Positions 1 to 10,057 of a stretch of DNA of 35,868 bases are shown here, one piece after another. Each line of letters opens with the position of its first letter. Position 1 is the stretch's first letter. Location of the stretch: the IMG/VR virus record IMGVR_UViG_2609460346_000008. One strand, given 5' to 3'. This DNA comes from a virus (lineage: Duplodnaviria; Heunggongvirae; Uroviricota; Caudoviricetes). Under the pieces are notes generated by a model. That model had not been told where the DNA came from. It saw only the letters and a program-made list of their open reading frames with translations, and did no database searches. The position numbers and the translations under genes were made by a program.

Positions 1-162
1 ATGACTACTCAAAACAATAAGCATGATAGCCTGGATTACTCAGAAAAGCCCAAAAGCAAGCACATCGTGACGTTCGAGCGCGATTCCGGTAGAAAAGGAG
101 AATCGTCTTCCTCTGCCAATAAAACCACTATGCCGGCAGCCCCTGCCCCAGGGAAAAAATAA
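1..162 (+). CDS. Small ORF (53 codons) of unknown function; possibly the 3' end of a longer gene starting upstream of the window
   Basis: Open frame from base 1 to TAA at 160-162, not in the supplied track (below its size cutoff). Ser/Ala/Pro-rich tail. Convergent with the 166-798 gene. No RBS can be assessed because the window starts at the ATG. Confidence 0.2.
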   Translation: MTTQNNKHDSLDYSEKPKSKHIVTFERDSGRKGESSSSANKTTMPAAPAPGKK

Positions 163-165
163 ACA

Positions 166-798
166 TCATTCATCGTTCGTTGCACGAACGCGCCTGATCT
201 CCACTCTGGCAATCTGATCTGCTGGAATATAGGTTGCCAGAGCTCCCCAGTACTTATCAACCACGCCTTTATACTCTTCCCATTCGTTACTGCCTGAAGG
301 GCTGCTGTGCGTGACGTAAAGAACCATATCGCCTTTATTCCCCAGGGTAAACGGACCGTTAGGCCACTCTTCAAAGTTCCCTGGCAGCCGTGACATCATA
401 CCGGAACCATCGCGAAGAATCACTCTGACCTCGGTAACGCTGAAGCCTGTTTGATCAAACATTGCCTGCCATGCTGAGCTGGTATCGTCAGACCATGAAA
501 CATCATTATTCCACAGTAATCTGTACATCCATTTGCGACCGTACCTGCGCCACCACGCACCACATGTAACGGCACACAGAAGTGCTGGTGGTGTTGCCAG
601 CCAGGCATTCAGACCTGCCCACATAACAGCCTGGTAAGCCATCATTGCTGTCAGGCCAAAAATCAGCGAAGAAAAAGTCACCTCAATGGGCTTGTGGTGA
701 TCCTTCAGTCCCACATTCGCAATAAAATACCCAATATAGCCACTGGTCAGGGTCACCAGTGTTGCCCATGGCAGATTTAACAACGAAACGTCAAACAT
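166..798 (-). CDS. Hypothetical membrane protein (about 3 N-terminal TM helices plus about 120-aa soluble C-terminal domain); accessory/moron candidate
   Basis: Track ORF 166..876; preferred start is the ATG at 798 (MFDVSLL...) with GGGAGA 4 nt upstream. Hydrophobic segments LVTLTSGYIGYFIANVGL and LIFGLTAMMAYQAVMWAGL...LLCAVTCGAWW. Lies downstream of the early-operon terminator. No family recognised. Confidence 0.6.
   Translation of the reverse strand: MFDVSLLNLPWATLVTLTSGYIGYFIANVGLKDHHKPIEVTFSSLIFGLTAMMAYQAVMWAGLNAWLATPPALLCAVTCGAWWRRYGRKWMYRLLWNNDVSWSDDTSSAWQAMFDQTGFSVTEVRVILRDGSGMMSRLPGNFEEWPNGPFTLGNKGDMVLYVTHSSPSGSNEWEEYKGVVDKYWGALATYIPADQIARVEIRRVRATNDE
174..190. terminator. Short hairpin (7-bp stem CGTTCGT/ACGAACG, 3-nt loop) between convergent ORFs
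   Basis: Inverted repeat read directly from sequence; no clear U-tract on either side, so terminator function is uncertain. Confidence 0.3.
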
Positions 799-835
799 AT
801 TTTCTCCCTGCATCCTGAATACTAAAGAGAGAGCA

Positions 836-867
836 TAAAAAAAGCACGGTAAGGGGTCTACCGTGCT
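836..867 (-). terminator. Rho-independent terminator of the leftward early operon
   Basis: 9-bp stem AGCACGGTA/TACCGTGCT with 7-nt loop (843-867), followed on the minus-strand transcript by a run of 7 U (plus-strand A7 at 836-842), immediately downstream of the Mor-like gene. Confidence 0.65.
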
Positions 868-912
868 TTTATACAATAAGGAGATTTTTGAAAGGGCTTT
901 AACAAGCAGGAA

Positions 913-1311
913 TTATCTGGATTTGTTAACGTCTTTCGTCTCCTCTGGCAGATCTTCATCAAACAACCTGCCCTGCATCCGATCCAGTTCTTCTTTTCTG
1001 ACCCGCTTAACCACGCTGTAGACCCACTGAAGCGAAACACCAAACTTGCGGGCCAGTTCGTGGTGGTTGCGTCCGTTAAACTCCCTGAAGATTTCCCGGT
1101 CGCGCTGACTGACCTTCCATACCATGCCCATCGGGAAATAAACGTTTTGCCCGCCCCAGACCTGCATCATTCGGTTCGCGACGGCCTGACCAATCTGGTC
1201 GGCAATTGCGGGCTCAATATCAATAATCTCGCGAACGGTCTCAGAGGTATGCTGTGCCAGCTCCACCAGGAGTTCCGGCCCTTTACTTCGAAACTGATTC
1301 AGGTCGCTCAT
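913..1311 (-). CDS. mor: Mor/C-family transcriptional activator (middle/late gene activator)
   Basis: 132 aa, C-terminal HTH-like segment ELARKFGVSLQWVYSVVKRVRKEE; last gene of the early operon directly after a GemA-like gene, as in Mu (gemA-mor). RBS GGGAG 7 nt upstream of the ATG at 1311. Confidence 0.75.
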   Translation of the reverse strand: MSDLNQFRSKGPELLVELAQHTSETVREIIDIEPAIADQIGQAVANRMMQVWGGQNVYFPMGMVWKVSQRDREIFREFNGRNHHELARKFGVSLQWVYSVVKRVRKEELDRMQGRLFDEDLPEETKDVNKSR

Positions 1312-1732
1312 GTTTTACTCCCGCAGCTCTGTGCTGCCACTTCTTCAGTTTCTCAATAACACTGCTTGCCTGTTCAGTATTGAGCCAGCGCAGGGCGCTG
1401 ATGCCCGTTTCCCGCTTGATCCACCGCGCTAATGCATTTTCTGAACGGTCACGAACAATGCCGGCAGCAGCCATTTCAAGCCATAGCGCACGAATTTTCC
1501 TGGACTGCGGATGGTTATCCAGCGGTAAACCGGAGCTGGCTTTTCTGGCTGGTTTAACGCGAAAGCCTTTCTTTTTCATGGATTCCAGCACGCAGTTTAG
1601 TTGTGTGGTATCCATTCCTTTGGTTGAGGCTTTACCGGTCAGCCCCTGTAACATCTGGCGGTAGGTGTCTTCATCCATACCCAGTTCATTACGGGCAATA
1701 TGGATAAGCTGTATCAGGCGTTTTTTCTGCAT
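1283..1732 (-). CDS. gemA: GemA-like protein (Mu gp16 family, DUF1018-like)
   Basis: 149 aa, N-terminus MQKKRLIQLIHIARNELGMDEDTYRQML typical of the GemA family; AAGGAG RBS 5 nt upstream; 3' end overlaps the mor start by 29 nt. Confidence 0.7.
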   Translation of the reverse strand: MQKKRLIQLIHIARNELGMDEDTYRQMLQGLTGKASTKGMDTTQLNCVLESMKKKGFRVKPARKASSGLPLDNHPQSRKIRALWLEMAAAGIVRDRSENALARWIKRETGISALRWLNTEQASSVIEKLKKWQHRAAGVKHERPESVSK

Positions 1733-1733
1733 A

Positions 1734-1940
1734 TCATCTCCTTTTTTTCAGTCTGTCGGCAACAATGTCGGTTGCAGCTGGCAGGGTGACTGGCCAGAAC
1801 AACATGACGGCGGTCATGTACAGGATGTAATGCGCGGTGTCGTAGTGCCTGCCATAGCCCAGGGAACGATGAAGTCTTGCGCTGCATGATCCTGCGTACA
1901 TATACCAGAAAAGAAAACAGACAATGGTTTCAGTAGTCAT
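1734..1940 (-). CDS. Small hydrophobic membrane protein (68 aa)
   Basis: Internal ATG at 1940 (MTTETIVCFLFWYMY...) with GGGAGG RBS 9 nt upstream; hydrophobic; follows the stop of the upstream gene by 7 nt. Confidence 0.45.
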   Translation of the reverse strand: MTTETIVCFLFWYMYAGSCSARLHRSLGYGRHYDTAHYILYMTAVMLFWPVTLPAATDIVADRLKKRR

Positions 1941-2160
1941 TCTGAATACCTCCCCATTCGATATGAATATTACGGGCAGCAATGACAGGGTCGTTATTCC
2001 ACCATGCACCTGACATGTATTTTTCAACCTGTTCGCGTCCGGCAATAACACCAATTGTGATCCCCGGCCTGACGTTCTTAAAAAAGGCGCGGGCAAAAAG
2101 GTATCTGGCAGATATTCGGCAGGCTTTTAATTTCCGGCTGTTACCTGATAGCGTAATCAT
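1930..2160 (-). CDS. Hypothetical protein (76 aa)
   Basis: ATG at 2160 overlaps the stop of the upstream gene (ATGA coupling); GGAGG RBS 5 nt upstream. Confidence 0.45.
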   Translation of the reverse strand: MITLSGNSRKLKACRISARYLFARAFFKNVRPGITIGVIAGREQVEKYMSGAWWNNDPVIAARNIHIEWGGIQNDY

Positions 2161-2840
2161 CTGGCCTCCAGTTTCTGTTGTTCCTGCCCACTGACCGGGC
2201 GGTGCAGTCTGACGTTCTGCCCTTCACGAAACCCCGCATAGCGCGAGGCGTCGCCATTGCGGCTTCTTCCCGGTTTACGCGCCCTGGTGGTTTGCGTTTG
2301 CGGGTATTTATGTTCCAGCCACTGTTGCATCAGTTCACGCTCATCATCGGTCAGGGCAAAGGACTGTATTTCACTGATAACGGCCAGTACCCAGCCTTCA
2401 GCAAACTGGTCTCCACGGCTGGTACGGGTGGCGTTTTTTATTCTTTTGTTCTGTGCGCTGATATACTGCTGACGCGCCTTTTTCAGCTGGCGGACCAGCA
2501 CTTCCCAGGTGTACGCAGCCAGTGCCGCTCGTTCCCGGTTACCGTAGAACCCCACAGACGGATGCGTGCCGGGGTGAATGATGGAGTTAACACCAAATGC
2601 CTCGCGGATGATGTTCATCAGGCCCAGCATGTAGCGCGGTGGACGGAGACTGCCTGTCGGCCAGTAATGACTGATGGTTTCATCAATATCACTCATAGCA
2701 ATGTCGGAATGTGTGATGCCGTGAACATCCATCAGTTTACGGGCTCGGCGCAGTGCCAGAGCGGCCTCGTGCGGGTTGCCGGATGCGGCCAGCGCCAGCA
2801 ACTTTTTCAGTTTCTCAATGTGTTTATTCTGGTCTGTCAT
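2157..2840 (-). CDS. DUF2786-like early-region protein (Mu semi-essential region type)
   Basis: Start at the ATG at 2840 (MTDQNKHIEKLKKLLALAASGNPHEAALALRRARKLM...), 3 nt after the upstream gene's stop; N-terminal motif resembles the DUF2786 family common in Mu-like prophages. Confidence 0.55.
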   Translation of the reverse strand: MTDQNKHIEKLKKLLALAASGNPHEAALALRRARKLMDVHGITHSDIAMSDIDETISHYWPTGSLRPPRYMLGLMNIIREAFGVNSIIHPGTHPSVGFYGNRERAALAAYTWEVLVRQLKKARQQYISAQNKRIKNATRTSRGDQFAEGWVLAVISEIQSFALTDDERELMQQWLEHKYPQTQTTRARKPGRSRNGDASRYAGFREGQNVRLHRPVSGQEQQKLEAR

Positions 2841-3052
2841 TGTTCTGTATCTCCGGTATTTTTCTGCCGTTTCCATGCCCGGACAGCGTCGGACAGCTCT
2901 TTCAGGCTGTATGCTGCTTTAAGCTTTTCCCATAACCACTGTGTTGTTATGTGCATCAGCAGGGCAGCCAGGGCTGCCCCCGCACTGAGGCATGTCGCCA
3001 GGCCAGTAAGAATCAGTGTCCATGCGGTGATTTCCCTGAGTATGTCAGCCAT
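2837..3052 (-). CDS. Small membrane protein (71 aa)
   Basis: GGGAGG RBS 8 nt upstream of the ATG at 3052; one hydrophobic helix (WTLILTGLATCLSAGAALAALLM). Confidence 0.5.
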   Translation of the reverse strand: MADILREITAWTLILTGLATCLSAGAALAALLMHITTQWLWEKLKAAYSLKELSDAVRAWKRQKNTGDTEQ

Positions 3053-3066
3053 TGAATGCCTCCCGG

Positions 3067-3363
3067 TTACTCGTTCGTGTAAATCACGCCCAGTCGTGCA
3101 GCCAGACGTTCCAGTTTTTTCTGTTTGTGGAAGTCAATCAGCCGGTCCATCCCCTGAAGGCGCAGTTGCTCTGTCATGATTTCCACGTCTGCCAGCTCTG
3201 CCGCGAGGTCACTTTCGCTGCCCTGTCCGTTCAGATTGCGGGCAGCACTGGCCGCCAGTTCAGCGGCCTCTTCTGTCAGTTTCAGGGCCTGTGCGTCCGG
3301 CCCGAAACGCTGCAGGGCCAGACGGTAGAGGGCGGTGCGGGTGAGTTCGGTGTTTCGTGTCAT
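3067..3363 (-). CDS. MazG-like nucleotide pyrophosphohydrolase domain protein (98 aa)
   Basis: Paired acidic helices LTEEAAELAASAA and LAAELADVEIMTEQL match the EExxE...ExxD pattern of all-alpha NTP-PPase (MazG/HisE-like) proteins; RBS GAGGG 7 nt upstream. Confidence 0.5.
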   Translation of the reverse strand: MTRNTELTRTALYRLALQRFGPDAQALKLTEEAAELAASAARNLNGQGSESDLAAELADVEIMTEQLRLQGMDRLIDFHKQKKLERLAARLGVIYTNE

Positions 3364-3372
3364 GCCGCGCCC

Positions 3373-3645
3373 TCAGTGCTTCCGGCTGACGGTGATGTGC
3401 AGGCCGCCTTCTGCAGTGGTTTCCATCCGGTACGGCACCTCATGCTCTGCCGTGTGGGTGAGTGTGTTCATCAGTACCTGCAGGGCAGCCTCCTTTCCGT
3501 TGGTCGCCACAATGGCCTGTGTGGCCATGCTGATTAGCGCCGTCAGGACGTGCTTCACATCGGTGAGGTCGCGGCATTCACACTCGTTGACATAGTGTTC
3601 AACAAGAGTTCGGGTGCGCTGTCGTGCTTCCTGTGGGGTAATCAT
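3373..3645 (-). CDS. Hypothetical early protein (90 aa)
   Basis: GGGAGG RBS 8 nt upstream of the ATG at 3645; ATGA overlap with the upstream gene's stop. Confidence 0.5.
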   Translation of the reverse strand: MITPQEARQRTRTLVEHYVNECECRDLTDVKHVLTALISMATQAIVATNGKEAALQVLMNTLTHTAEHEVPYRMETTAEGGLHITVSRKH

Positions 3646-3836
3646 TGCGCGTCCTCCCTGTCAGGGCGGGAGAATTCTATGACGGGCACGTCCGCCGAAA
3701 AATGCTGGCTGCAGTACGGGCAGACCAGGGTGACGCGTACTGCAGGTACGTGGTACTTACCGGACATCACGGCGATGGCGCTGTGAAAACGCAGGGCTGT
3801 TATATCCCTCTCGCACTGAATACATTTAAATATCAT
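3642..3836 (-). CDS. Small zinc-ribbon protein (64 aa, CxxC...CxxC)
   Basis: CIQC near the N-terminus and CPYC 30 residues later; AGGAG RBS upstream of the ATG at 3836. Confidence 0.5.
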   Translation of the reverse strand: MIFKCIQCERDITALRFHSAIAVMSGKYHVPAVRVTLVCPYCSQHFSADVPVIEFSRPDREDAQ

Positions 3837-3932
3837 GATTTAATTCTCCTCTGTTTCCGGCGTGCAGAAGCCCACGGCGCTGATGCCGGAATAAAAAAGA
3901 AAAGGCTGTTTTAAATAGCTTATATGCTGTTT

Positions 3933-4463
3933 TTACTGCACATTCTGCTCAAAAGGAATTATTGAAAAATCCTCAATATCACTTTTTATGGTAATACCGG
4001 GAATATTTTTCACGGCGTCCTTTTCATTCAGGATGGCGTCTTTATTTATTTCCTCCTTTACACGGATAAAGCGCTCAAGCCCCAGACGTCTCAGTAATTC
4101 AATAACATTATCCGCCCCACGGATACTGACTGACGGCGGACGGTTTCGCCACTGCACCTCGCCGGTGGTGAGGTTAGCGAACTTCACCTTCCCGTTGCCG
4201 GTCAGTTCATCACGGTGTGCCTCACACCATGTCTGAATACCGGACTGCAGTTCGGCCATGCGTTTTTTCAGGCTCTCGGTGAGCGGGGCATAACGTGCGG
4301 TGATGTCGCCAATGGTGTCATTCATTTCTGTTTCAGCCCTGACCAGTTCACGTTGCGCGTCACCAAGCAGTCTGATTCCCTCAATGACCTCTTCGCGTGT
4401 CCCCGGCACCCAGAGTGCTGCTGCGGCTTTGATACGTTTTGCCCCTTTTGTACTTTTTGCCAT
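3933..4463 (-). CDS. gam: Gam-like host-nuclease inhibitor (Mu Gam / Ku-like DNA-end-binding protein)
   Basis: 176 aa (Mu Gam is about 174 aa); position downstream of the transposition genes as in Mu; strong AGGAGGAG RBS. Confidence 0.75.
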   Translation of the reverse strand: MAKSTKGAKRIKAAAALWVPGTREEVIEGIRLLGDAQRELVRAETEMNDTIGDITARYAPLTESLKKRMAELQSGIQTWCEAHRDELTGNGKVKFANLTTGEVQWRNRPPSVSIRGADNVIELLRRLGLERFIRVKEEINKDAILNEKDAVKNIPGITIKSDIEDFSIIPFEQNVQ

Positions 4464-4490
4464 ATTTTATGACTCCTCCTGTTGTGCTGA

Positions 4491-4760
4491 TTACCACAAA
4501 GATTCCGGCCACACGACGCGACAGCCGTGCAGTTCGAAAACGCCCTGACGGAAATGTCCCCTGTGGTCATGACCGGTATACAGATAACAGGCCTTTCCCT
4601 GCTCAAGCATGCGCATGCAATGCGCACTCCGGGAAACGCGGATGACAGGTTTGTTACCCCTGATGGTGATGCTTTGTACATCCGTGTTCGTCGCCTTAAG
4701 CGCCATAATGGCTGACTGCACTTTGCTGATTTGCTGGTTGATACCTGTGGTGGATTTCAT
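4491..4760 (-). CDS. Hypothetical early protein (89 aa)
   Basis: RBS AAGGGG 8 nt upstream of the ATG at 4760; directly downstream of the transposition ATPase gene. Confidence 0.5.
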   Translation of the reverse strand: MKSTTGINQQISKVQSAIMALKATNTDVQSITIRGNKPVIRVSRSAHCMRMLEQGKACYLYTGHDHRGHFRQGVFELHGCRVVWPESLW

Positions 4761-4762
4761 TA

Positions 4763-5929
4763 TTAAACCCCTTTGACAACGTCAGCGTTGACCTGTGGAA
4801 CCCCGATTTCAGCGGCCAGATTCATGGCGGCTATTACCAGGTTACTGACGGCCAGCGGATACAGCAGGCTGACCATATTTTTACGATGACTTCCCGGATT
4901 GCTCAGGCGGGCACGTATGGCATCCACTGCGCTGGCGTCCATAATGTCCGTCAGTTGTTTACCGGCCCGTTGCAGTTTGAACGTCAGAAACTCTTCAAGG
5001 TTATTGTCCAGAGGCAGAAGTTCGACCACCTCACAGCGCTGAACGACTTCACGGACTTCCATATTGCGTTCAGACAGTTTTGTCGCCAGTTCCGGCTGGC
5101 CAATCAGCACGATGGACAGCAGTTTTTTGAAACCGGACTCCAGCTCAAAAAAGCGTTTGAGGTGTTTCAGTGTCGGAATGGGCAGACTGTGGGCCTCCTC
5201 AATCACCAGAACGTGGCTGAACCCCGCCTGGCTGCTGTCTTTCAGGACGCGATGCAACTGGCGAAAGCGGGCGTCCTGACTGCGTCTGATGCTTTCCAGT
5301 GGTGCGATGGTACTGATAATGGCTTCGGCAATCGCTGCTGCCTTCAGGGTTTTCCCTTTCACATCGTTGTCTTCCATAGCGATGATGTATGGCTCGATAA
5401 CAATTACCGGCGCATTCTCGCGGTTGATACGTTCAGTCAGGTCGCGGCGCAGCGTGGATTTACCCGCACCGGACTCACCGATGACGGCCATAAACCCACC
5501 ATGACGGGCTGTCTGGTACAACGCCTCACGCACGTAGCGAATGTCCGGGGTGGTGAACACATCATCAGAACCCTGCATGGCTTCATCGGCGAACGGGTCA
5601 CGGAAAAGACCAAACGCTTTTTTGGTTGCTGGAAATAACACCTGTTTTTTGAGTAACATATTCTCTTCCTCACTGAGGCTCGTTTTATCTGTGGTACCCG
5701 CTGTACGGGGCGTGGCTGCGCCCTGTACAGCATCAAAACTCTTCGTTGTATCAATCCCCTGACTTTCCAGCCAGGACGCAAGACGCCGGCGCACTTCTCC
5801 GGGGCTGGTGCGGGGCCACGCGTTATGATTCACAATCTGGGCCAGCGTGGCCTCAGAAACATCGACAGCTCTCGCCACCACCGCCTGTGGGATACGGGCC
5901 TCTTTCAGTTGCTGCTTCAGTACCAGCAT
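4763..5929 (-). CDS. Transposition ATPase (AAA+; functional analogue of MuB, ExeA/TniB-like)
   Basis: Walker A GESGAGKST and Walker B VLVIEEAH; N-terminal HTH-like region; preferred start is the ATG at 5929 with GAGGAGG RBS 5 nt upstream (track ORF extends to 5968); immediately downstream of the DDE transposase. Confidence 0.8.
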   Translation of the reverse strand: MLVLKQQLKEARIPQAVVARAVDVSEATLAQIVNHNAWPRTSPGEVRRRLASWLESQGIDTTKSFDAVQGAATPRTAGTTDKTSLSEEENMLLKKQVLFPATKKAFGLFRDPFADEAMQGSDDVFTTPDIRYVREALYQTARHGGFMAVIGESGAGKSTLRRDLTERINRENAPVIVIEPYIIAMEDNDVKGKTLKAAAIAEAIISTIAPLESIRRSQDARFRQLHRVLKDSSQAGFSHVLVIEEAHSLPIPTLKHLKRFFELESGFKKLLSIVLIGQPELATKLSERNMEVREVVQRCEVVELLPLDNNLEEFLTFKLQRAGKQLTDIMDASAVDAIRARLSNPGSHRKNMVSLLYPLAVSNLVIAAMNLAAEIGVPQVNADVVKGV

Positions 5930-5939
5930 GTTTTCCTCC

Positions 5940-7709
5940 TCAGTTGCCGTTAACAATGCTGATAACACTGCTGCGTGCCGGCGTGGTCAGCGTGGCCATG
6001 ACTTCATCCAGTGCAGCTTCCGGTACGCCGTCCGGGTACTGTGCCGTTAACTGGCGGTAATGTTCCGGCGTCCAGGTAAGGCCGTCGGCGCTGAACTTAT
6101 CGCGCAGGGCTTTCGCGGCCTCCACATGAGTCATGGGACGCTGTTCAGTGCGCGGTCCGCGTACGTCAGAGGCCTGGCCTCGCTTCGGCAGGTAGGCCGG
6201 AAGTGTGGTGTCGTCGATATGTTTATACGGGTCAAGCCGCCCGCCGAACGGCAGCGCCTTCGCCTTGCGTGCGGCAGCTGCATCTGCGGCGTTGTCTGTA
6301 CCGGTGACCAGCGCTTCGGTTTCTTTTGCCGCCATCTGCGCCGGGGTTTCCGGCAGGGCTTTGTAACTTTCGCCAAATACCGCCGCGCCTTCAGCAAAGC
6401 CAAACTCGTTCTTTCTGACCTCTTCGACCAGGAAGAACGTCTCGTGGCCGTCCTCACCGGTCAGAACCACCTGTGCCACATCGCTGCGCCACGGGTTACG
6501 GGTAATCATCAGTTTTTCACCAACCAGTACGCCCGGTACCGTTGATACGTCAAATTCAGTGCCCCGGAACGAGACACGAAGTTTTGGCGTGACTTTGCGG
6601 AGTTCTGGTGCCGCCACAGCCAGTTCACGACATACCTCAACGGAAGGCGCTTTTTTCAGCTGCTCAGCAGTAATCTTCAGCCAGATATCCGTGCGGGTTT
6701 TACCGTGGCGGCTGTGAACAGCCGTGGCGTTAAAGTGGCTGCGCCATTTCGCGGCCAGCGCGTTGAGTTCTTCCAGACTGTGAACCGGCCGGAACTTCAG
6801 ACCCGGCTCCAGCTTGCGTTCGATAATGTCCCGCGCCTTTTCCACCTGTCCGGTGGCGCGGGCGTTATGCGGCTTGTGCGCTATCAGGTCGATGCCCAGT
6901 GAGCGGCACATGTTTTTCGTCATACCCGCGGTGTTTGCCGAGCCGGGGTCGAGATAGAGTATTTTCGGCACACCGTGCAGCACGTCTGCGCCGCCACGCT
7001 CCTGCATGGCGTTGATAAGCACAGAACACAGGTTCTCACCTGATTCCGCGCCCGTCACATACTCAACGTAAATCCAGCCGCTGGCATGGTCGGTAATCTC
7101 GTAACTCCACACGCGGTCACTGGCGATACGGGCAAGGTTAGCGGGCTTGTTCTTGTAGAACTTCGCGCTGTCCATCACCTGCAGCCCTTTATGTCCATTG
7201 CTCAGGTAGTAAAGCGTGCAGAGTGAGGCGTCAATCTGCCAGACATGATTGGGATGCAGACTGGCCACTTCGGTATGCGGCGCAGGGGCATCCAGTTGTT
7301 CCGGGTGCAGGCCATAGTTACGCAGGGCTCGGCTGATGGCATCTTCGGACAACGGGAAAAACTCACCGGTGGTTTCATCTGTTCTGCCTGCGGATATAAA
7401 GCCGTTAGCCCGCAGGGTTTCCACTGCATCCGCGATGGAATAGAGACGCTTACCGTTCTTGCGGGTGGCCTCACGCAGTGTGGCAGATATCAGCGCGGCT
7501 TCGTCGCGGGTCAGGGCGCTGCGCCCGGCATCGGCGCGTTTTTTGCGTTTATCAGTCACAGATACCTCCTTCAGCCTGCGCAGCAGAGTGGCGCGGGACA
7601 TGCCAAGTTCAGCACAGGCAGCGTCGTATATTGCACCGCGTTTACCATGCCCCGCGTCACGTGCCGCGCGGGCTGTTTCAACCAGTTTTTCAGTCAGTGC
7701 CGGGGTCAT
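5940..7709 (-). CDS. DDE transposase (integrase-core/rve fold, Mu/Tn552/TnsB-like) with N-terminal HTH
   Basis: 589 aa; catalytic triad spacing read from the translation: D in HVWQIDAS, D in YLDPGS, E in ATGQVE 36 residues after the second D (D,D-35-E). Confidence 0.85.
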   Translation of the reverse strand: MTPALTEKLVETARAARDAGHGKRGAIYDAACAELGMSRATLLRRLKEVSVTDKRKKRADAGRSALTRDEAALISATLREATRKNGKRLYSIADAVETLRANGFISAGRTDETTGEFFPLSEDAISRALRNYGLHPEQLDAPAPHTEVASLHPNHVWQIDASLCTLYYLSNGHKGLQVMDSAKFYKNKPANLARIASDRVWSYEITDHASGWIYVEYVTGAESGENLCSVLINAMQERGGADVLHGVPKILYLDPGSANTAGMTKNMCRSLGIDLIAHKPHNARATGQVEKARDIIERKLEPGLKFRPVHSLEELNALAAKWRSHFNATAVHSRHGKTRTDIWLKITAEQLKKAPSVEVCRELAVAAPELRKVTPKLRVSFRGTEFDVSTVPGVLVGEKLMITRNPWRSDVAQVVLTGEDGHETFFLVEEVRKNEFGFAEGAAVFGESYKALPETPAQMAAKETEALVTGTDNAADAAAARKAKALPFGGRLDPYKHIDDTTLPAYLPKRGQASDVRGPRTEQRPMTHVEAAKALRDKFSADGLTWTPEHYRQLTAQYPDGVPEAALDEVMATLTTPARSSVISIVNGN

Positions 7710-7724
7710 AGCTTGTCTTCCCTG

Positions 7725-8042
7725 TTATCCGATTCTGGCGGCAATTTTTCTGGCGAGGTCGCACAGTGTTTCGCCATCGCAGGTTTTCACCACGGTATTT
7801 ACCGGTTGCGGTGCAACTACCGGGCGTAATGCTGACTGATTCTGCAGACGTCTTATCTGCTGCATCAGCATCACCTCCATCGTCAGTACAAACGGGTGCG
7901 TCTCCTGTGCGGGTACGCAGATTTCACCGGAAGGGGTCACCACGCGGAAACCCTGCACCATCTCCGGCAGCAGATTACACAGTGCGTGCCCCAGTGCCTC
8001 CGGGCTGTCCATCAGGGTATTTTGTGTGTTATTCGTATTCAT
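7725..8042 (-). CDS. Hypothetical early protein (105 aa)
   Basis: ATG at 8042 overlaps the stop of the upstream gene (TAATG); GGAGG upstream. Confidence 0.5.
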   Translation of the reverse strand: MNTNNTQNTLMDSPEALGHALCNLLPEMVQGFRVVTPSGEICVPAQETHPFVLTMEVMLMQQIRRLQNQSALRPVVAPQPVNTVVKTCDGETLCDLARKIAARIG

Positions 8043-8962
8043 TACTGCATATCCTCCGGTCGGTTGATTTCAGGTTCCGGTTCGGTCAGCCAGGCGGGGG
8101 CATCGTTACCCGATGGAGCGGCCTCAAGGTCAAACGTCTCACGTAATGCATGAACACTGCGTTCAATCTGGCAGACCAGACCGGCCATGAAATCTCTGGG
8201 GGTATCGATCATGTTTTTGGTGCAGTATTCACACAGGGTCTCAAAAACACTGGACAGCTGGACGGCGATAGCCGATTCGGCCTCAACCGCTAATGCCATC
8301 ACTTCCGCCCGCAATTTTTTCAGTTCTTCGTCTGGCGGCGGAGGTTGCAGGCGCGATTTCTTCTCCAGTTTTGTGGCCAGTTCGTTGATTTTTTCGTCCT
8401 TTCCGGCAAGCACCTGTTGCTGAGCTGCGTTGGTTTCGCGCGCTTCACGCAGGGCGGCCTTCAGTTCGCGGCTGGTCATGCGATCAATATCATCAAGCGT
8501 TGCACCGGCGACGGTTCCACCATCAGCTAATGCGTCGAGTTCTTCGTCATCCAGAACCATCAGTTCATATAACTTGGTTTTTCCCAAAACGCTCAGCGCT
8601 GAGCGTTTTGGCTGTTCATCTCCATTGCCGAGAAATTTCACGCTGGCCTGCATCATGCGACGAGCTACCTGTGGTGCTAATCCGAGGTCGTTTTCCAGAA
8701 TATTTGTGAAATCACCATGCGGTTCATTTTCTTTTAAGATGATCAGCCGCTTACCCGCTTCCAACATAGATTCAGCACTCTGCGCCATATAAAAACGTGC
8801 TTCGTGAACGATGCGTTCACGTTCATAAGGCAGTCCATCACCAAACTGCTGCATGATCTCCATGCGATGCTGTGTCATGGCATTCAGGCTGACGTTGAGA
8901 TCATCCGACAGCGGTACATCGGCGTTCAGTTCAGTGTTAATCGGTGATTTGGTACGTCCCAT
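8042..8962 (-). CDS. Hypothetical early protein (306 aa) with acidic/coiled-coil C-terminal half; possibly DUF3102-like
   Basis: AAGGAG RBS 8 nt upstream of the ATG at 8962; the N-terminal region (RFYMAQSAESMLEAGKRLIILKENEPHGDF...) resembles a phage/plasmid domain of unknown function. Family assignment is tentative. Confidence 0.55.
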   Translation of the reverse strand: MGRTKSPINTELNADVPLSDDLNVSLNAMTQHRMEIMQQFGDGLPYERERIVHEARFYMAQSAESMLEAGKRLIILKENEPHGDFTNILENDLGLAPQVARRMMQASVKFLGNGDEQPKRSALSVLGKTKLYELMVLDDEELDALADGGTVAGATLDDIDRMTSRELKAALREARETNAAQQQVLAGKDEKINELATKLEKKSRLQPPPPDEELKKLRAEVMALAVEAESAIAVQLSSVFETLCEYCTKNMIDTPRDFMAGLVCQIERSVHALRETFDLEAAPSGNDAPAWLTEPEPEINRPEDMQ

Positions 8963-8972
8963 TGATTACTCC

Positions 8973-9281
8973 TTACAAACGACTACCTGAAATGACACGT
9001 TGGTTAATTTCGTTAATACGATCCTGTGCACGTGCCATCTCGTTACTGTGGGCCATGGCGATCTGCAGTAACTGGATGCCCGGTGCAAAACGTCCGTTCT
9101 CCAGTTTCAGAGCCAGCCCTTCTTCAATGAGGGTGTTGAGTGCCCGGTTGATGTTTGCCGGTGACTCGTGCAGTGCTGTCGCCAGTTCACCGTTAGAAAT
9201 ACCGTTCAGGGCATGACCGCGCAGCGCTTTGAGTACCCGGAGGATGCGACTGCCGGAGCTTGAAACATTCGTCTTACTCAT
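8973..9281 (-). CDS. Winged-helix DNA-binding protein (IclR/MarR-like HTH)
   Basis: Start at the second ATG at 9281 (MSKTNV...), which has AGAGG at proper spacing; segment ISNGELATALHESPANINRALNTLIEEGLA is HTH-like. Confidence 0.55.
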   Translation of the reverse strand: MSKTNVSSSGSRILRVLKALRGHALNGISNGELATALHESPANINRALNTLIEEGLALKLENGRFAPGIQLLQIAMAHSNEMARAQDRINEINQRVISGSRL

Positions 9282-9333
9282 CTGCATACCTCTTTTGCGA
9301 TATGTGATAACCTTTTACAAAGACTCAAAATAT

Positions 9334-9522
9334 TTAGGCCGCCTGAGCTGTTGATTTCAGTCCCAACTTCACGGCGATTTCATGGGATTTACCGTAACGG
9401 GCTTTGGTCTGCCCGTTGAGAACGCGGTATACCTCATTGCGGTTGTAGCCGTTTTCTTCTGCCCAGCGGGTGAAAGTGATCCCGCGCTGGCGGAAGAGAG
9501 CTTTGACTTGTTCTGCAGTCAT
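9334..9522 (-). CDS. Ner/Cro-like small DNA-binding regulator (first gene of the early operon)
   Basis: 62 aa, HTH-like; AAGGAG RBS 8 nt upstream; divergent from the repressor gene across an operator-containing intergenic region, as for Mu ner versus c. Confidence 0.55.
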   Translation of the reverse strand: MTAEQVKALFRQRGITFTRWAEENGYNRNEVYRVLNGQTKARYGKSHEIAVKLGLKSTAQAA

Positions 9523-9574
9523 CGTTGTCTCCTTTGTTGATGCAATGATGTTTGCCTTATATGTGTTAGATTAT

Positions 9575-9592
9575 TGCTCATAATTATGAGCA
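9575..9592. promoter_or_regulatory. Operator: 18-bp perfect palindrome TGCTCATAATTATGAGCA between ner and the repressor gene
   Basis: Perfect dyad read from sequence; a third half-site copy TTATGAGCA at 9614-9622 overlaps the repressor start codon. Confidence 0.55.
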
Positions 9593-9615
9593 TATCAAGA
9601 TAGAGATTCACTTTT

Positions 9616-9972
9616 ATGAGCAAAGATATAGGAGAGCGCGTTATTTCTGTGAGGAAGAAAGCAGGGTTGAACCAGAGAGAATTTGCAGCTCGTTTAGGTA
9701 TTTCTAATGGTGGTATCAGTCAGATTGAAAATGGAAAGGCGATGCCTGGAGGGGAGTTTCTGTTAAAGATGCATCAAGAGTTTAATGTTGATGTAAATTG
9801 GTTGCTCACTGGAATGAGCACAGATGGTATGACTAGAAACCAGAATCAAATTTCCCCAGAAAAACAAAAACTAATAGATACTTTTGACGACATGACACCA
9901 GACCAACAACGCTCATTTCTTGAGATTGGGCGATTCTATACTCAGCCAAAACCAGGAAAAATCGCAGGCTGA
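9616..9972 (+). CDS. Phage repressor, XRE-family HTH (c-like immunity repressor)
   Basis: 118 aa; HTH QREFAARLGISNGGISQIENGK near the N-terminus; no S24 peptidase domain; gene visibly A+T-rich relative to neighbours; weak RBS. Confidence 0.8.
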   Translation: MSKDIGERVISVRKKAGLNQREFAARLGISNGGISQIENGKAMPGGEFLLKMHQEFNVDVNWLLTGMSTDGMTRNQNQISPEKQKLIDTFDDMTPDQQRSFLEIGRFYTQPKPGKIAG

Positions 9973-10057
9973 TACTGACCCGGACACAAAGGACAGGTGG
10001 TTGATCTGGATGCTTTCAGAAAACATCGCCAGTGACATAGTGGAAGTTGTTTGGTTT

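Follow-up and report, generated by a model that had tools for sequence, protein, structure and literature searches.

We analysed a window of 35,868 nucleotides from a virus of the Caudoviricetes (IMG/VR record IMGVR_UViG_2609460346_000008), and describe here a cluster of six small genes at positions 2837-4760. In our judgement the cluster probably makes up the accessory ('semi-essential') portion, far from the promoter, of an early operon that belongs to a BcepMu-like transposable Escherichia coli prophage. It is located downstream of the transposase and the B ATPase and upstream of GemA and Mor, and gam is its only gene whose family is established in counter-defence. The cluster is a typical accessory early region, which offers a good list of candidates and no new kind of system. 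It leaves the understanding of Mu-like phages unchanged, and what it offers to screens for anti-defence and host-takeover functions is a shortlist, ranked as follows: Gam with its known function, p89 with a probable Kil-type function, MazG98 with an intact motif, the rapidly diversifying p90, and tm71 as a mobile cassette. The features of the cluster, in gene order, are:

4491-4760, minus strand: p89, 89 aa, probable HI_1482 family, first gene after B (phrog_2041, synteny)
3933-4463, minus strand: Gam, 176 aa, family of Ku-like DNA-end-binding inhibitors of the host nuclease RecBCD (PF07352, 62% identity to Mu Gam)
3837-3932: 96-nt gap between Gam and zn64, the sole sizeable non-coding stretch of the cluster
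3642-3836, minus strand: zn64, 64-aa zinc-ribbon protein with four cysteines (phrog_3401, 1.3e-39)
3373-3645, minus strand: p90, 90 aa (phrog_3691, 4.2e-56)
3067-3363, minus strand: MazG98, predicted 98-aa minimal all-alpha nucleoside triphosphate (NTP) pyrophosphohydrolase of the MazG/HisE superfamily (phrog_2245, motif)
2837-3052, minus strand: tm71, 71-aa single-pass membrane protein (phrog_3958, 1.1e-41)

The six genes all lie on the minus strand and are tightly packed or overlapping, with 93% of the stretch coding. From the stop of B through tm71 the gaps are, in gene order, 2, 27, 96, -4, 9, and 14 nt. A Shine-Dalgarno-like sequence is found 6-10 nt ahead of each of the six starts, all six genes are annotated in RefSeq, and every protein matches a PHROG family (E 1e-34 to 1e-73). 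The median ratio of nonsynonymous to synonymous substitution rates (dN/dS) is 0.16 for p89, 0.15 for Gam, 0.21 for zn64 (from 30 pairs), 0.45 for p90, 0.15 for MazG98, and 0.36 for tm71, and 0.07 for B. All six are real genes under purifying selection. Long antisense open reading frames (ORFs) occur throughout the region, and the annotators of Escherichia phage PhiKM chose a plus-strand coding sequence (CDS) over the zinc-ribbon gene, as would fit a reading in which some of the small ORFs arose by chance in GC-rich DNA and are not genes. The ribosome-binding sites and PHROG matches of all six speak against this, and it was rejected on the conservation data, namely the dN/dS values, the conserved cysteines of zn64, and an antisense frame that only 17 of 49 relatives keep open; we regard it as highly improbable. 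The plus-strand CDS of PhiKM is probably wrong.

An initial annotation of this DNA had placed eight or nine tightly coupled small genes here. It was right about their packing and place, but not about their number, as 2837-4760 holds six and a count of nine is reached only over the whole interval from B to GemA, which adds a DUF2786/DUF7168 protein, a 76-aa gene, and a 68-aa gene. A consensus scan for promoters and terminators gave no internal signals above shuffle expectation, Rfam had no match in positions 1-10000 of the window, and none of nine proteins matched PADLOC-DB at E ≤ 0.1. The cluster would be co-transcribed with the transposase and the B ATPase immediately on induction or infection.

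The operon place of the cluster, after A/B and before GemA/Mor, is identical to that of the semi-essential early region of phage Mu (kil, gp6-gp9, gam, gp11-gp14, gemA, mor). Gam, GemA, and Mor show 62%, 36%, and 31% identity to their Mu counterparts, a small protein with a borderline Kil-like profile directly follows B, and there is a CxxC...CPxC zinc ribbon like gp6. However, beyond Gam, GemA, and Mor no protein similarity to Mu is detectable by BLAST, and Mu lacks the MazG-like gene, p90, tm71, and the DUF2786 protein. The window codes for a B ATPase of the ExeA/AAA_22 type, and its phage belongs to Bcepmuvirus and not to Muvirus. The functions of the semi-essential early region of Mu are themselves still described as largely unknown (PMC3820752).

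The interval between B and GemA is highly variable. Across 42 species-level relatives, chosen by the B ATPase alone, it ranges from 309 to 4303 bp and its gene content is shuffled: p89 is present in 24 of them, the DUF2786 protein in 20, the zinc ribbon in 19, MazG in 17, Gam in 11, p90 in one, and tm71 in none. This variability and the operon place bear out the earlier statement that the region is the equivalent of the semi-essential region of Mu. The cluster would then be a string of independent, exchangeable modules and not one machine. A point on the other side comes from Photorhabdus prophages (loci L159, L160, and L162-L166), in which B and GemA are only 720-790 bp apart and nearly the whole accessory cluster is missing; therefore, none of the cluster genes is needed for the core life cycle. 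The reality of the genes, their families, their packing in the operon, the gain and loss of modules, and the conservation of the catalytic motif are shown by the data; we infer the biochemical activities proposed below, as well as any link to host defence besides the known role of the Gam family.

Gam is the largest gene of the cluster, and the initial annotation had overlooked it. The protein matches PF07352 at 7.8e-41 and 139.9 bits (cut-off 28.3), with residues 23-169 aligned to positions 1-148 of the 149-position profile, and phrog_491 at 3.6e-73. With Mu Gam it shares 62% identity over 168 aa, and RefSeq names the product 'host-nuclease inhibitor Gam family protein'. The match to the Pfam family is full-length and far over threshold, and nothing notable sets the protein apart from other members. 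Gam of the Mu type acts as a Ku-like dimer: bound to DNA ends, it keeps RecBCD from loading, as is known for the Gam proteins of Mu and JBD30 (10.1101/2025.08.30.673261). By homology, Gam of the window is predicted to protect linear DNA ends from RecBCD: a dimer would cap the ends of linear phage DNA and keep the nuclease off. The cluster had been put forward as a set of anti-defence or host-takeover candidates, and the anti-defence part of that proposal is supported for Gam alone.

The genomic slot of Gam is, in many close relatives, held by an unrelated DUF3164 protein (203 aa, PF11363 at 3e-80; L054:2616-3227, minus strand). As seen in the window, in L054, and across loci L056-L185, Gam and DUF3164 share this one slot, after the post-B gene, and in total 51 loci carry Gam, 54 carry DUF3164, and none carries both. 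Among species loci selected by B, Gam is found in 11, DUF3164 in 22, neither in seven, and both in none; among viral loci selected by MazG the numbers are 40, 32, and none with both. Since the two alternate strictly in one slot, DUF3164 is hypothesized to act in end protection or in evasion of RecBCD, and it may be a non-homologous functional analogue of Gam. The possibility that the two are diverged homologues was rejected (hhalign probability 0.6%).

The first gene after B, p89, starts 2 nt past the stop of the B ATPase and had been listed as one of two proteins with no recognisable motifs. It is not featureless, however, and belongs to a recognisable post-B family. It matches phrog_2041 at 1e-36, and among 1.84 billion representatives a profile search turned up 85 relatives, 85-115 aa in length. 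Two distant relatives (P0093 and P0116) are encoded right behind a Mu-B-like AAA_22 ATPase, each in a Mu-like early region; Gam, GemA, and Mor are also present in one of the two. A family member is present in 26 of 48 B-selected loci, mostly within 3 nt of the B stop and otherwise ∼100-380 nt from it. In a word-indexed homologue search, p89 homologues were found in Enterobacterales only, nearly all at least 58% identical. The E. coli form in RefSeq, WP_000843445.1, which was not compared residue by residue with the copy in the window, is named 'HI_1482 family protein' in GCF_059294445.1 and 'hypothetical protein' in another assembly. We take HI_1482 to be the gene after B in the FluMu prophage of Haemophilus influenzae. 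p89 had no match in Pfam or in a scan of NCBIfam release 20, and a literature search on HI1482 returned unrelated papers only.

The post-B gene of Mu itself is kil, and several comparisons point from p89 to Kil. Two of the three Kil PHROGs (phrog_2743, phrog_6381, and phrog_2679) are among the four PHROG matches of p89, namely phrog_6381 (E 0.023) and phrog_2743 (E 0.21), each aligned collinearly over the full length. When 15 Mu early proteins were searched with a hidden Markov model (HMM) of the p89 family, Mu Kil alone was picked, over its full length, at 13.9 bits, and hhalign gave a probability of 60% (P 8.8e-5) for the family and Mu Kil. The two have a common pattern, A..L..G..V, P.I.I, and a C-terminal L.GC.vvW. 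Like p89, Mu Kil (phrog_2743) and HI_1482 of FluMu are small (74-108 aa) and come first after B. The similarity to Mu Kil is borderline, however, and Mu Kil lacks ∼15 central residues. An AlphaFold 2 (AF2) model of p89 has a predicted local distance difference test (pLDDT) score of 89 and the topology a-b-b-a-b-b-b; because the family has no conserved acidic residues, we treat the resemblance of its fold as topological only.

Three results weigh against a relationship to Kil. The link is statistically weak, with an estimated E of ∼0.05 in a set of 16,000 ORFs (scaled from the 15-protein search); no Mu-type locus gave E ≤ 0.01; and a BFVD structure search with the p89 model returned one uncharacterised family member and not Mu Kil. 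Relatives of Mu Kil found by scanning were all at least 84% identical, too shallow a set for a good Kil profile. On this evidence we lean slightly towards homology of p89 and Mu Kil. Mu kil was described by Waggoner et al. 1989, as cited in PMC3961180; a Kil-type protein would be expected to kill the host or to block septation when expressed. The likeliest role of p89 is Kil-type host takeover and not anti-defence, so that the host-takeover part of the earlier proposal fits it better; p89 would most likely perturb host division or morphology.

MazG98 had been called a MazG-like protein, and this call stands at the level of the superfamily, on its PHROG match, its motif, and its structural neighbours, with Pfam below threshold. 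The protein matches phrog_2245 ('nucleoside triphosphate pyrophosphohydrolase') at 4.8e-34, with weak matches to phrog_4856 and phrog_1992, and RefSeq gives the identical product name. The MazG superfamily has a metal-binding acidic motif, ExxE-x(12-28)-ExxD. In MazG98 it reads E31 E32-x2-E35-x20-E56-x2-D59 (E32-AA-E35 and E56-LA-D59), with E61 and E65 in addition. The motif is intact in 64 of 75 distinct homologues, and E61 and E65 are invariant in all 75. In 19 homologues that were scanned, PRA-PH was matched by 14 (best E 0.0012) and MazG PF03819 by nine (best 0.019), all below the gathering score. Foldseek ranks DCTPP1, iMazG, Bacillus MazG, AF1178, YpjD, and HisE highest in the PDB for the AF2 monomer model, with E values of 0.07-1 and probabilities of 0.8-0.99. 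The model is all-alpha with two long helices (pLDDT 77), and the helix breaks that it misses are probably marked by the conserved G21-P22 and G71. Compared to the small single-domain enzymes iMazG (2q5z), Bacillus MazG (5ie9), YpjD (2gta), AF1178 (4qgp), DCTPP1 (7mu5), and HisE, MazG98 is alike in its length of ∼100 aa, its all-alpha model, and its EExxE...ExxD motif, but differs in that every match is sub-threshold and that two long helices are modelled instead of a closed four-helix bundle, which in the superfamily forms dimers or tetramers.

Against the assignment, MazG98 scores 15.1 bits with Pfam PRA-PH (PF01503), where the cut-off is 21.3; an hhalign comparison of the family with E. coli MazG is not significant (E 0.16); a profile search of the PDB is not significant either; and 11 of the 75 homologues have motif substitutions or deletions, including five with E56K/R. 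The NCBIfam model TIGR03188 is also matched below its cut-off (14.5 vs 42.7). In the alignment to E. coli MazG the motifs pair, in the N-terminal domain of that protein. Three of the 11 exceptions are deletions in decaying symbiont genomes, and the losses of the motif may stem from the decay of cryptic prophages or from a role for which catalysis is dispensable. The five homologues with E56 changed to K or R belong to loci L121, L161, L133, L134, and L158, and three of these also lack D59. Taken together, we are confident that MazG98 belongs to the MazG/all-alpha NTP pyrophosphohydrolase superfamily, and we consider it a likely active enzyme.

No other small gene is as well conserved in distant relatives as that of MazG98 (56-77% identity). 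A tblastn search of 50,697 phage genomes yielded five Mu-like relatives only; therefore, MazG98 is not close to any other phage MazG. Its homologues in the word-indexed search were, as for p89, restricted to Enterobacterales, nearly all at least 58% identical.

Of the six genes p90 varies most and has the highest dN/dS. Its start overlaps the stop of zn64 by 4 nt. The homologues from the word-indexed search are nearly all from E. coli and 44-98% identical. Across 36 haplotypes of the E. coli lineage the mean nucleotide divergence is 0.062 (maximum 0.22), compared to ∼0.03 for the neighbouring genes. The N-terminal half occurs as two to three allelic types, whereas the C-terminal EVPYRMETTAEGGLHITV.RKH is conserved; the last 22 residues are invariant, and the neighbouring genes are nearly identical among these E. 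coli prophages. No match to p90 was found in Pfam, NCBIfam, PADLOC, or the PDB. A database variant (P0188) consists of a zinc-ribbon N-terminus fused to the C-terminus of p90.

The CxxC...CxxC zinc ribbon reported earlier at 3642-3836 is well supported, as all four cysteines of zn64 (C5, C8, C39, and C42) are present in 49 of 50 homologues. An hhalign comparison with the Mu gp6 family gave a probability of 53% (P 1.3e-4) and covered both CxxC knuckles, and zn64 is possibly related to, or the counterpart of, Mu gp6 (E5). Like p90, zn64 had no match in PADLOC, Pfam, NCBIfam, or the PDB. In the 96-nt gap between Gam and zn64, a hairpin can form in which the zn64 ribosome-binding site GAGGAG is base-paired to a U-run. 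The fold of the gap (-28.7 kcal/mol, z -1.8) is not significantly stable and has no Rfam match, and neither a promoter nor a terminator was detected there by the consensus scan.

tm71 has one hydrophobic segment, residues 14-32, with a Kyte-Doolittle mean of 1.98 over 19 residues. Two tiny membrane proteins had been assigned to the cluster; tm71 lies inside it, but the second, at 1734-1940, is outside. E. coli prophages in which MazG is 93-97% and B 99-100% identical to the copies of the window were compared at the junction between MazG and DUF2786, which is either empty (8 nt), or filled with tm71 (229 nt), or with tm71 and a 127-aa gene (593 nt). As an accessory gene, tm71 behaves as a cassette that is either present or absent. 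It matched nothing in PADLOC, Pfam, NCBIfam, or the PDB. As to the structure search of the small proteins proposed earlier, neither single-sequence nor profile searches gave a significant PDB match for MazG98, p89, p90, or zn64, and MazG98, zn64, p90, and tm71 showed no likeness to a solved structure in the PDB or to a defence component in PADLOC.

The main alternatives concern the purpose of these genes. MazG98 would most likely hydrolyse a nucleotide triphosphate or polyphosphate, either in editing the nucleotide pool for replicative transposition or in removing an alarmone or immune nucleotide, and the anti-defence reading is one of two that are comparably plausible. The suggestion that a MazG-like enzyme could deplete alarmones or signalling nucleotides has a precedent in the phage MazG-like domain Atd1, which hydrolyses ppGpp and protects cells against TIR-STING and retron-TIR (10.1101/2022.06.09.495361), and a counter-example in a cyanophage MazG, which leaves (p)ppGpp intact and acts preferentially on dGTP and dCTP (PMC6850273). 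These published cases disagree as to the substrate. Like Atd1 of Pectobacterium phage PcCB7V, which is compared here from its description, MazG98 is a short phage protein of one MazG-type catalytic domain, has the acidic motif, and lies amid accessory genes. Atd1 adjoins a nucleotidyltransferase gene, whereas MazG98 is part of a transposable-phage early operon, and MazG98 has no BLAST-level similarity to a phage MazG outside its Mu-like relatives. That MazG98 is an Atd1-type counter-defence enzyme which blunts abortive infection by hydrolysing (p)ppGpp or another signalling or immune nucleotide, with p90 and the zinc ribbon as direct inhibitors of defence proteins, would be in keeping with the conserved catalytic motif, the predicted early expression from an accessory region, and the diversity, dN/dS, and allelic N-termini of p90, which are as expected of an arms-race protein. 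Yet the isolation of MazG98 among phage MazG proteins and the inactivity of the cyanophage enzyme on (p)ppGpp speak against it, and the dN/dS of p90 is below 1, with a diversity that resembles allele replacement by recombination. We consider this full scenario unlikely. The preference of the cyanophage enzyme for deoxynucleotides fits with a housekeeping or pool-editing dNTP pyrophosphatase that aids replicative transposition and has no role in defence, as does a mycobacterial MazG that is reported to clean 5-OH-dCTP (PMC3855555). Such an enzyme would clear non-canonical dNTPs or shift the dNTP pools, in the way shown for the cyanophage MazG. The conservation of MazG98 in distant relatives and its low dN/dS point the same way. 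So do its closest structural neighbours DCTPP1, iMazG, Bacillus MazG, and YpjD, which we take to be house-cleaning enzymes. On the other side, MazG98 is found in only 17 of the 42 B-selected relatives, and so is not needed for transposition as such, and Mu has no homologue of it. Pool editing without a defence role is a reading that we hold tentatively, at somewhat less than even chances.

Another alternative is that some of the small genes, chiefly tm71, are lysogenic-conversion or superinfection-exclusion genes which benefit the host and do not serve lytic takeover. The presence or absence of tm71 among near-identical prophages would suit this, and low-level early and semi-essential transcription has been reported in Mu lysogens, with a benefit to the host suggested (PMC3820752). 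However, the consensus scan gave no promoter for tm71 itself, which overlaps the start of the next gene by 4 nt within the early operon and is unmatched in PADLOC, and we find the idea improbable. We prefer to see the cluster as an accessory early region of exchangeable modules. That, besides Gam, it encodes one or more uncharacterised counter-defence functions seems to us rather doubtful; the likeliest form would be early destruction of an alarmone or immune nucleotide by MazG98, and p90, restricted to E. coli and rich in alleles, might directly inhibit a strain-variable host defence.

Positions 1-8000 of the window are 98.3% identical to Escherichia phage PhiKM, a member of the genus Bcepmuvirus from uropathogenic E. 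coli. The 2.7 kb around the cluster were found in 624 of 5426 complete E. coli genomes, exclusively in the chromosome and in at most three copies per genome. About one complete E. coli genome in nine thus carries this type of prophage, and with PhiKM a released phage exists; the early accessory genes would therefore be expressed in many clinical strains when the prophage wakes. The features that flank the cluster are:

5940-7709, minus strand: transposase
4763-5929, minus strand: B ATPase, ExeA/AAA_22-type
2157-2840, minus strand: DUF2786/DUF7168 protein (PF23771 3.1e-26, PF10979 4.8e-11)
1930-2160, minus strand: 76-aa gene
1734-1940, minus strand: 68-aa hydrophobic protein, before GemA
1283-1732, minus strand: GemA
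913-1311, minus strand: Mor
840-870: strong terminator after Mor, the sole strong one in the promoter and terminator scan

The gene of the DUF2786/DUF7168 protein, found in 20 of the 42 relatives, overlaps the stop of tm71 by 4 nt. The 68-aa protein occurs as two highly divergent alleles (100% or ∼40% identity) in E. coli prophages that are near-identical elsewhere. A gene at 166-798 (minus strand), past the Mor terminator and at the far left end of the prophage, encodes a 210-aa protein whose N-terminus has hydrophobic helices and whose C-domain is soluble. It has no match in Pfam or PADLOC, and the PhiKM annotation labels a fragment of it as an ABC permease, which is wrong. The first kb of the window, which includes this gene, has a GC content of 0.476, compared to 0.51-0.55 over the next few kb, and the gene looks like a separately transcribed moron.

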